In this document: positions 12,626 through 18,307 of the stretch, piece after piece
Layout: each line of letters starts with the position of its first letter
Numbering within the stretch: the stretch's first letter is position 1
DNA from: a virus
Lineage: Duplodnaviria > Caudoviricetes
Reading direction: 5' to 3' (one strand)
IMG/VR virus record: IMGVR_UViG_3300044719_000253
Coordinates: 1-64,000 of that record
DNA: 64,000 bases
Position numbers and translations under genes: made by a program
Notes under the pieces: model-generated
Seen by the model: only the letters and a program-made list of their open reading frames with translations
Database searches by the model: none
What the model was told of the DNA's origin: nothing

Positions 12626-13042
12626 TTAGTGTCCCATCGCGCGAGTTAACCACCACTCGTGCTCTGGCTTGATCTCCATGAAGTCTACCGTCTCGCTGTA
12701 ATACCCGTTGCTAGAGCCATGCCAACGAATATCCACATACCCCTTGATCGTGGCGAATTTGTAGAACGTCCAGGTGTTGCTTCCATCCTCCCAGTCAACC
12801 TCGATAGAGTTCTCAGGGCGGTCTTGGCTAACCGCTTCTTCTGCAAGCAGAATCGGCGATCCGATCAGATCATTGAAGTCTCCGACGATTGATTCGATTT
12901 CCACTGTCTCACAACAGTTTTGGTCGTGGTGCAGGGCGTATCGCACCCCTTCATCTGTCGTAAACAGGATCGCGTCTTTCATGCCGTTGACTTCGATCTT
13001 CACCAACGTTTTTCCCAACAGTGCAACAACTTCCATTTTCAT
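12626..13042 (-). CDS. conserved phage protein (H.Q.CCE.V ... TWTFYK.AT.KG.V.IRW.G.SNGYYSE family)
   Basis: Recognisable widespread phage family motif; function unknown. Confidence 0.75.
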
Positions 13043-13328: not shown

Positions 13329-13413
13329 CGTGGAGGGGAGGAGTCGAACCTCGCCAGCGAACTGGACCTCCGCCACACAAGAGTGCCTCATAACCGATCG
13401 GCTAACCCTCCAC
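13329..13413 (-). tRNA. tRNA-like gene with 8-bp acceptor and 4-bp T stem (allo-tRNA-like), class II variable arm, possible GUG anticodon
   Basis: GTGGAGGG/CCCTCCAC acceptor, GCC/GGC D stem with GG, CCAG-TTCG-CTGG variable arm, GAGG-TTCGACT-CCTC T arm, G discriminator, no encoded CCA, irregular anticodon arm. Confidence 0.7.
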
Positions 13414-16262: not shown

Positions 16263-16337
16263 TGGTGCCGATAGAGTGAATCAAACACTCGACCTTACGC
16301 TTACAAGGCGTCTGCTCTGTCACTGAGCTATATCGGC
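16263..16337 (-). tRNA. trnT: tRNA-Thr(UGU)
   Basis: 7-bp acceptor GCCGATA/TATCGGC, anticodon loop CT-TGT-AA, encoded CCA; T loop reads TTTGATT. Confidence 0.9.
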
Positions 16338-18154: not shown

Positions 18155-18229
18155 TGGGCTTGGAGGGGAGATTCGAACTCCCGACCTCTGTCTTGGTTAT
18201 ATGCGCTCTAACCGACTGAGCTACCAGCG
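18155..18229 (-). pseudogene. degenerate tRNA-like element (D and T arms intact)
   Basis: TAGCTCAGTCGGTTAGAGC and GGGAG-TTCGAAT-CTCCC; anticodon and acceptor stems do not pair. Confidence 0.6.
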
Positions 18230-18240
18230 AGTATCTTCAT

Positions 18241-18307
18241 ACTCCCCAGGCTGGACTCGAACCAGGGACCTCAAACGACAGTGCTCTACCGCTGAGCTAC
18301 TCCGCGC
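18241..18307 (-). pseudogene. degenerate tRNA-like element (D and T arms intact, anticodon arm truncated)
   Basis: TAGCTCAGCGGTAGAGC and CTGG-TTCGAGT-CCAG; only about 10 nt where the anticodon arm should be. Confidence 0.6.

Follow-up and report, generated by a model that had tools for sequence, protein, structure and literature searches.

Results and Discussion

Organisation of the Locus

The DNA analysed here, which will be referred to as the window, extends from position 1 to 64,000 of an IMG/VR virus record of 226 kb that is estimated to be 83% complete. A gap of 109 nt between two minus-strand ORFs of the window is occupied by an 85-nt element that is very probably derived from a tRNA (Table 1). 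Genes are arranged in the order 99 aa, 55 aa, 142 aa, element, 67 aa, DUF7448 and 119 aa, and the AGGAAGG ribosome-binding site of the 67-aa ORF is left intact by the element. Neither a sigma-70-type promoter nor an intrinsic terminator was found beside the element, and searches for direct or inverted flanking repeats defining a mobile cassette were equally negative. The flanking ORFs yielded no homing-endonuclease or toxin-antitoxin family, and the AlphaFold model obtained for the 142-aa protein was poor (pLDDT 43).

Table 1: Coordinates in the window of the element, its parts and the two flanking ORFs. Positions in brackets are counted from the 5′ end of the element.
Feature	Window position	Strand	Remarks
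Upstream ORF, 142 aa	13421..13849	-	no family match; stop 7 nt before the element
Element, 85 nt, probably tRNA-derived	13329..13413	-	5′ G at 13413, discriminator G at 13329
Acceptor stem, 5′ strand (1-8)	13406..13413	-	8 Watson-Crick pairs with 13330-13337; pair probabilities 0.93-1.0
D region (10-29)	13385..13404	-	two alternative folds
Anticodon-arm region, 17 nt (31-47)	13367..13383	-	GUG triplet at 13376..13374
Variable arm (49-60)	13354..13365	-	stem CCAG/CUGG, loop UUCG
T arm (62-76)	13338..13352	-	4-bp stem GAGG/CCUC, loop UUCGACU
Acceptor stem, 3′ strand (77-84)	13330..13337	-	followed by G, then CUU; no CCA
Downstream ORF, 67 aa	13108..13311	-	conserved in relatives; ATG 18 nt past the element

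Architecture of the Element

Read on the minus strand, the element forms an acceptor of G1-G8 with C77-C84 in which all eight pairs are Watson-Crick, and a T stem of G62-G65 with C73-C76 (4/4 Watson-Crick) directly abuts it, resulting in a 12-bp branch split 8/4. A fifth T-stem pair is impossible, because C61 would face C77. This bears out the preliminary description, which had proposed a perfect 8-bp acceptor and 4-bp T stem with 12 coaxial base pairs, and the drawing made by ARAGORN at 90% of its threshold agrees with it. The G discriminator and the UUCG-capped variable arm put forward in the same description were likewise recovered: G85 follows the last acceptor pair directly, and the long variable arm consists of a 4-bp stem closed by UUCG, which is in competition with another hairpin in the ensemble (probability 0.2). 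The T loop is canonical, and the D loop contains the conserved GG.

Two folds are available to the D region. Fold A, a 5-bp stem with a GAUC tetraloop of the Sec/allo type, was predicted with a probability of 0.72-0.84, and fold B, with a 3-bp GCC/GGC stem and a 12-nt loop carrying the GG, is of the canonical class-II type and very similar to E. coli serT. Compared with the serT D arm GCCGAGCGGTTGAAGGCA, the D region of the element differs by three substitutions and one inserted base. The region also contains the palindrome CCGATCGG (window 13391-13404), including a GATC site, and it is this palindrome that makes the alternative tetraloop hairpin possible. Outside the anticodon arm, 19 of 19 pairs are Watson-Crick (acceptor 8, T 4, variable 4, canonical D 3).

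The Anticodon Arm and Competing Folds

The anticodon-arm region allows two readings, both of which had been pointed out before and are indeed present in the sequence. In the GUG register a 7-nt loop, G-U-GUG-G-C, is closed by the five stem positions C-G, U.G, C.A, U.G and U.G, that is, one Watson-Crick pair, three G.U pairs and one C.A mismatch. The alternative register places an 8-nt loop on a 4-bp stem composed of C-G, U-A, C-G and U.G. Evaluation with ViennaRNA gave -24.8 kcal/mol for the ARAGORN cloverleaf with the GUG register, with anticodon-stem pair probabilities of 0-0.03, compared to -27.5 kcal/mol for the same cloverleaf minus the anticodon stem; forming the GUG stem thus costs +2.7 kcal/mol. 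Shifting the stem by one, which creates the 8-nt loop, resulted in -31.2 kcal/mol, and the minimum-energy fold was a five-stem junction of -34.7 kcal/mol in which U37-G38-U39 are paired. These energy models leave out modifications and tertiary contacts.

The ARAGORN register spaces U33, GUG and purine 37 canonically, but it is the register predicted not to form. The possible GUG His anticodon of the preliminary description is drawn by ARAGORN at 90% of its threshold, whereas the stem that would present it is predicted to be absent. The well-paired longer anticodon stem with a 7-nt loop that serves as a criterion for allo-tRNAs was not found in the element. Position 15 is a U, in contrast to a purine in 18/18 tRNAs fetched with the D-arm pattern. 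Judged by the folding models, the element has no credible 5-bp/7-nt anticodon arm. Loops of 8 nt are able to decode, as known for the yeast mitochondrial tRNA-Thr(UAG) (PMC7609411).

Detection by tRNA Finders and Chance Expectation

At its default setting ARAGORN did not call the element, and its sole call in the 226-kb genome was a tRNA-Thr(UGU) at 16263-16337. At 90% of the threshold the element was drawn as an 8/4 cloverleaf (8-bp acceptor, 4-bp T stem) and labelled tRNA-His(gtg); since this setting also returned about 10 other doubtful, probably false, calls in the 226 kb, the call proves little by itself. The check suggested at the outset, ARAGORN combined with a manual fold, gave an 8/4 cloverleaf at the 90% threshold but no default call and a destabilising anticodon stem.

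The top match in Rfam was tRNA-Sec (RF01852) with 29.2 bits against a gathering score of 47, corresponding to an E-value of 6e-4 in 351 nt and of 0.02 in 12 kb. No match to the general tRNA model RF00005 was obtained at its gathering score (29 bits). Apart from its low score, the element departs from tRNA-Sec in having an 8/4 and not the bacterial 8/5 branch, and UCA occurs in neither loop reading.

A strict scan for the 8/4 architecture, in which a TTCRANY loop on a 4-bp T stem had to be stacked directly on a perfect 8-bp acceptor in a span of 68-95 nt, detected a single site in the 226-kb genome, which is the element, compared to 0.017 sites expected per first-order Markov genome. The folding z-score of the whole molecule was -1.5. 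The unique 8/4 site, the T loop, the GG of the D loop, the serT-like D region, the tRNA-Sec match and the intergenic fit argue for derivation from a tRNA, and on these sequence features we consider such an origin, as opposed to chance, highly probable. Sub-threshold scores appear to be normal for the 8/4 class, as the phage tRNA-Ser gene at L074:442-525 described below was also uncalled by default ARAGORN and gave no Rfam match at E <= 1. Standard tRNA finders hence overlook the 8/4 class: both tools missed a phage tRNA-Ser that looks clearly functional.

Comparison with Related Phages

The element was found on three further contigs, which match the window at 100% identity over 3.6-6.4 kb. As these copies represent the same genome, they are silent on constraint and covariation. 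Close relatives of the flanking proteins were found in IMG/VR on one 272-kb contig only. This closest relative (L082) is a complete genome with terminal repeats showing 76% protein identity in a nearby gene. Its gene order around the 67-aa gene is 92 aa, 71 aa, 122 aa, 208 aa (an RLIG1-type RNA ligase) and 128 aa, the 122-aa gene being a distant homologue of the 142-aa ORF. At the syntenic locus the element is missing, with merely 21 nt at its place. A covariance model built from the element (R1) had no match elsewhere in the 272-kb genome and none in an unrelated complete 222-kb phage genome that had been fetched via the DUF7448 neighbour.

The element is also missing from L084 and L099, in which an ATP-grasp gene adjoins the 67-aa homologue. 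In L085 the corresponding position (L085:1-176, plus strand) is taken by a tRNA-Leu(UAA), cut by the contig end, and a tRNA-Leu(CAA), both of class II and with encoded CCA; the pair ends 19 nt before the ATG of the 67-aa homologue, in the same slot as the element. Because its contents differ among lineages, the site just upstream of the 67-aa gene is a variable slot in which tRNA genes can reside. The 142-aa ORF has distant homologues (16-30% identity) of about 122 aa in L082 (7260-7628) and L085 (402-773), and as these lie downstream of the 67-aa gene, the element is located at a local rearrangement of gene order. Judging from the sequences compared, the element is private to one lineage and arrived with, or was left beside, the rearranged 142-aa gene. 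The DUF7448 neighbour gene (12626-13042) is widespread but not syntenic, and no homologue of the element was present in 80 DUF7448 loci.

A few genes downstream of the 67-aa gene, both relatives encode an RLIG1-type RNA ligase (L082:7656-8282 and L085:2037-2600, both on the plus strand; Pfam PF17720, E 4e-7 in L082). The 226 kb of this phage yielded no such ligase, and its place is taken by the DUF7448 gene.

Sequence Relatives of the Element

Megablast and blastn searches with the locus and with the element against cultured phages returned chance-level matches only, the element had no match in E. coli genomes, and an exact 21-mer of its 3′ half was absent from IMG/VR. A pattern made of the acceptor and T arm retrieved only two bacterial tRNA-Tyr genes from metagenome and genome contigs, a likeness that is forced by the pattern. 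A tRNA-Tyr(GUA) within a bacterial Thr-Tyr-Gly-Thr operon (L089:4240-4323, minus strand) is identical to the element in its acceptor and T-arm sequence. This tRNA-Tyr can be drawn as 7/5 or 8/4, and its 3′ end lacks the usual 5+7 nt followed by A73-CCA.

Searching with R1 picked out two phage 8/4 tRNA-Ser(UGA) genes, L074:442-525 (plus strand) and L095:8777-8860 (minus strand). They share with the element the 8-bp acceptor, the 4-bp T stem, the UCGAC core of the T loop, the 4-bp UUCG-capped variable arm and G73. Unlike the element, they possess a clean anticodon stem of 4-5 bp with a CUUGAAA loop as well as a 6-7-bp D stem with a CGGC tetraloop; moreover, they are located in tRNA arrays, and the L074 copy encodes CCA. 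Close to the latter, ARAGORN reported a tRNA-Trp(cca) at L074:336-417 (plus strand) whose best Rfam match, with 31.7 bits, is to tRNA-Sec instead of the general tRNA model, and which therefore probably represents a further non-canonical phage tRNA.

Phage tRNA-His(GUG) genes were found in the large tRNA arrays of 127-133-kb contigs (L101, L105, L109, L111, L112 and L114) and on a 46-kb contig (L117). With R1 they scored 37-40 bits, the best among the tRNAs retrieved, compared to 24-30 bits for tRNA-Ser; as the pattern used to fetch them had come from the D arm and T loop of the element, this likeness is partly forced. Like the element, they begin with GUG, allow an 8-bp acceptor with a 4-bp T stem, contain the same D-arm words and the same T loop, and combine a GGCAC-U entry into the anticodon stem with a UUGUG(A/G)C loop. 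In contrast to the element, they belong to class I; their variable loop measures 5 nt, their 5-bp anticodon stem is perfect and their acceptor is followed by CC. They can also be drawn as 7/5. On the Rfam tRNA model the L111 tRNA-His scores 51.7 bits, whereas the element stays below gathering. Three likenesses are not forced by the pattern, namely the compatibility with 8/4, the 5′ GUG and a loop UGUGGC that is identical to that of L111.

These comparisons bear on the ‘Ser-type body’ that had been assigned to the element. G73 and the variable arm are indeed those of the phage tRNA-Ser genes, but the highest scores, partly owing to the search pattern, belong to tRNA-His(GUG). The unforced likenesses suggest a possible tRNA-His descent of the anticodon half and a Ser-type body that may be confined to the variable hairpin and G73. 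A pairwise ranking against 290 tRNAs was dominated by pattern-fetched sequences and leaves the ancestry between His, Ser and Tyr unsettled.

Identity Elements and 3′ End

AlaRS identity is conferred by the G3:U70 wobble pair. This mark is missing from the element, in which G3 pairs with C82. The identity of bacterial tRNA-His resides in a G-1:C73 pair with CCA directly after it; G1:C84 is present in the element, but the next bases are G-C-U instead of CCA, so that the HisRS mark is missing as well. Given the 12-bp branch, G85 is an ordinary unpaired discriminator. SerRS relies on a G73 or U73 discriminator and on a long variable arm, and by sequence the G73 and variable arm of the element would in principle fit this enzyme. 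No CCA is encoded after the element, whereas it is present in the tRNA-Thr gene of the same phage and in the tRNA-Leu genes of its relative L085. A gene for a CCA-adding enzyme was not found in the 226 kb of the phage.

Relation to Published 8/4 tRNAs

Serine and histidine tRNAs with the 8/4 branch, (8/4) tRNA-Ser and tRNA-His, and allo-tRNAs are known from both bacteria and phages (Mukai et al. 2017, Nucleic Acids Res 45:2776, PMC5389517; review PMC7609411). The allo-tRNAs were discovered as false positives of the Rfam tRNA-Sec covariance model; those with non-Ser anticodons insert Ser in E. coli, and the group includes inactive species with destabilised stems and five-stem junctions (PMC5389517). 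The allo-tRNA-type architecture claimed for the element stands up well in this comparison, as its 8/4 branch, G73 and long variable arm match the published group (PMC5389517) and the tRNA-Ser genes of L074 and L095. Further features in common with the (8/4) allo-tRNAs are the 12-bp length of the branch, a possible long-stem/tetraloop D arm, a sub-threshold tRNA-Sec match and the occurrence in a phage. In contrast to the element, the group has a well-paired longer anticodon stem. The element also deviates from the group in its spacing: with the canonical D fold, 3 nt separate the acceptor from the D stem, and with the tetraloop fold the D arm is followed by 7 unpaired nt. A tRNA shape with a non-standard anticodon region in a large phage is likewise typical of the tRNA look-alikes or ‘stable RNAs’ of phage tRNA clusters, including those encoded by this phage itself. 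The element is best filed as an irregular example of the already published 8/4 kind; it has the branch, the variable arm and the discriminator of that kind and fails in the anticodon stem.

Possible Roles of the Element

We favour, with a probability of roughly 0.5, the interpretation that the element is a non-decoding but processing-competent tRNA look-alike or relic and not a working mistranslating tRNA. It would have retained an intact ‘top half’, that is, the acceptor-T minihelix, the T loop, the D region and the variable hairpin, without a credible anticodon arm. Since promoter and terminator signals of its own were not found, the element is likely to be transcribed within a minus-strand operon together with the 142-aa and 67-aa genes. 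Host RNase P might recognise it in the transcript and cut before G13413, 3′ nucleases would trim after G13329, and a CCA-adding enzyme could complete the 3′ end. A stable RNA of about 85-88 nt would thereby be set free, and the two cistrons would be parted with the ribosome-binding site of the downstream one left untouched. The product may become serylated via G73 and the variable arm, though efficient decoding is not to be expected. As a lineage-specific filler of a slot that holds ordinary tRNA-Leu genes in a relative, the element appears to be a young and irregular look-alike, either a relic or an accessory mimic. Against the look-alike interpretation, every helix is well formed in the folding models when the 8-nt-loop register is adopted. 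In addition, the anticodon arm might have been shaped on purpose, as neutral decay would not be expected to spare 19 other Watson-Crick pairs.

The preliminary description had gone further and proposed that the element mistranslates His to Ser, promotes frameshifting or acts as a decoy. We found no support for these functions: the GUG stem is not predicted, CCA is lacking, the element is lineage-specific and the AlaRS and HisRS marks are missing. An actively decoding 8/4 tRNA, charged by host SerRS and reading CAY codons with GUG in a 7- or 8-nt loop (His-to-Ser), or else reading four bases with the 8-nt loop and so shifting the frame, is unlikely in our view, even though several features point in this direction. 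The element shares its branch, G73 and 4-bp UUCG variable arm with the phage tRNA-Ser genes of L074 and L095, and the ARAGORN fold provides canonically spaced U33, GUG and purine 37 within a loop identical to that of the L111 tRNA-His. Serine insertion by allo-tRNAs with non-Ser anticodons (PMC5389517) and decoding by 8-nt loops (PMC7609411) have precedents. However, the 7-nt register is predicted not to form, both ARAGORN and Rfam score the element below threshold, CCA is absent in contrast to the real tRNA of the phage, and none of the related lineages compared contains the element. A proteome-wide substitution of His by Ser would also hurt the phage itself, and published allo-tRNA-UAU species with similar defects were inactive (PMC5389517). 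The restriction of the defects to the anticodon arm, with 19 other pairs perfect, could instead indicate a purpose-built, non-decoding mimic whose disabled anticodon serves to bind or distract a host factor, such as an anticodon nuclease or other tRNA-targeting defence, a synthetase or a modification enzyme. Several tRNA look-alikes are located 2-5 kb away in the same phage, and there are known cases in which tRNAs of phages counteract tRNA-targeting defences (PMC10264068, PMC11555353). Nevertheless, on the sequence comparison this too seems improbable: in contrast to those look-alikes the element is not conserved in relatives, and no partner gene was identified, the flanking ORFs having no family match and the 142-aa protein its poor structural model.

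A deliberate chimera would unite several of these features. A tRNA-His-type anticodon loop and an 8-bp acceptor would be combined with a Ser-type variable hairpin and G73, and the weak arm would serve as a switch, with a ‘locked’ five-stem fold and an open fold as its two states, creating a conditional His-to-Ser mistranslator or quadruplet reader, or else a charged decoy for a synthetase or a defence nuclease; we regard this as quite improbable. Still less credit is given to a chance resemblance or a silent fragment without an RNA product, which we consider very unlikely. The element was missed at the default ARAGORN setting and at the Rfam gathering thresholds, the z-score of the whole molecule was modest, and the 90% setting of ARAGORN produced other doubtful calls, all of which would suit chance. 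On the other hand, the strict 8/4 motif is expected far less than once per genome, the element also has the D loop of a tRNA and a variable hairpin and fits the intergenic gap exactly, and a genuine phage 8/4 tRNA-Ser (L074) was missed by the same tools.

Should the RNA be made and processed, the element would be a jumbo-phage addition to the small set of 8/4 tRNAs, and it would show that such genes come and go in a variable ‘tRNA slot’ among closely related phages. Its main value is as a caution, since an anticodon read off such a gene should count in favour of recoding only if there is support for the anticodon arm.

Other tRNA-Like Sequences in the Window

The element had been called solitary. 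This has to be qualified with regard to a 5-kb island of tRNA look-alikes (15.6-20.4 kb in the window) that lies 2.2 kb away. The RNAs of this island, but not the element, are kept in the 272-kb relative L082. Within the island, on the minus strand at 18165-18301, two tRNA-core modules without an acceptor stem were detected, which match the Rfam tRNA model only from model positions 6-7 to 64-65. These modules overlap a weak match to YrlA, a Y-RNA-like RNA (22 bits compared to a gathering score of 69).
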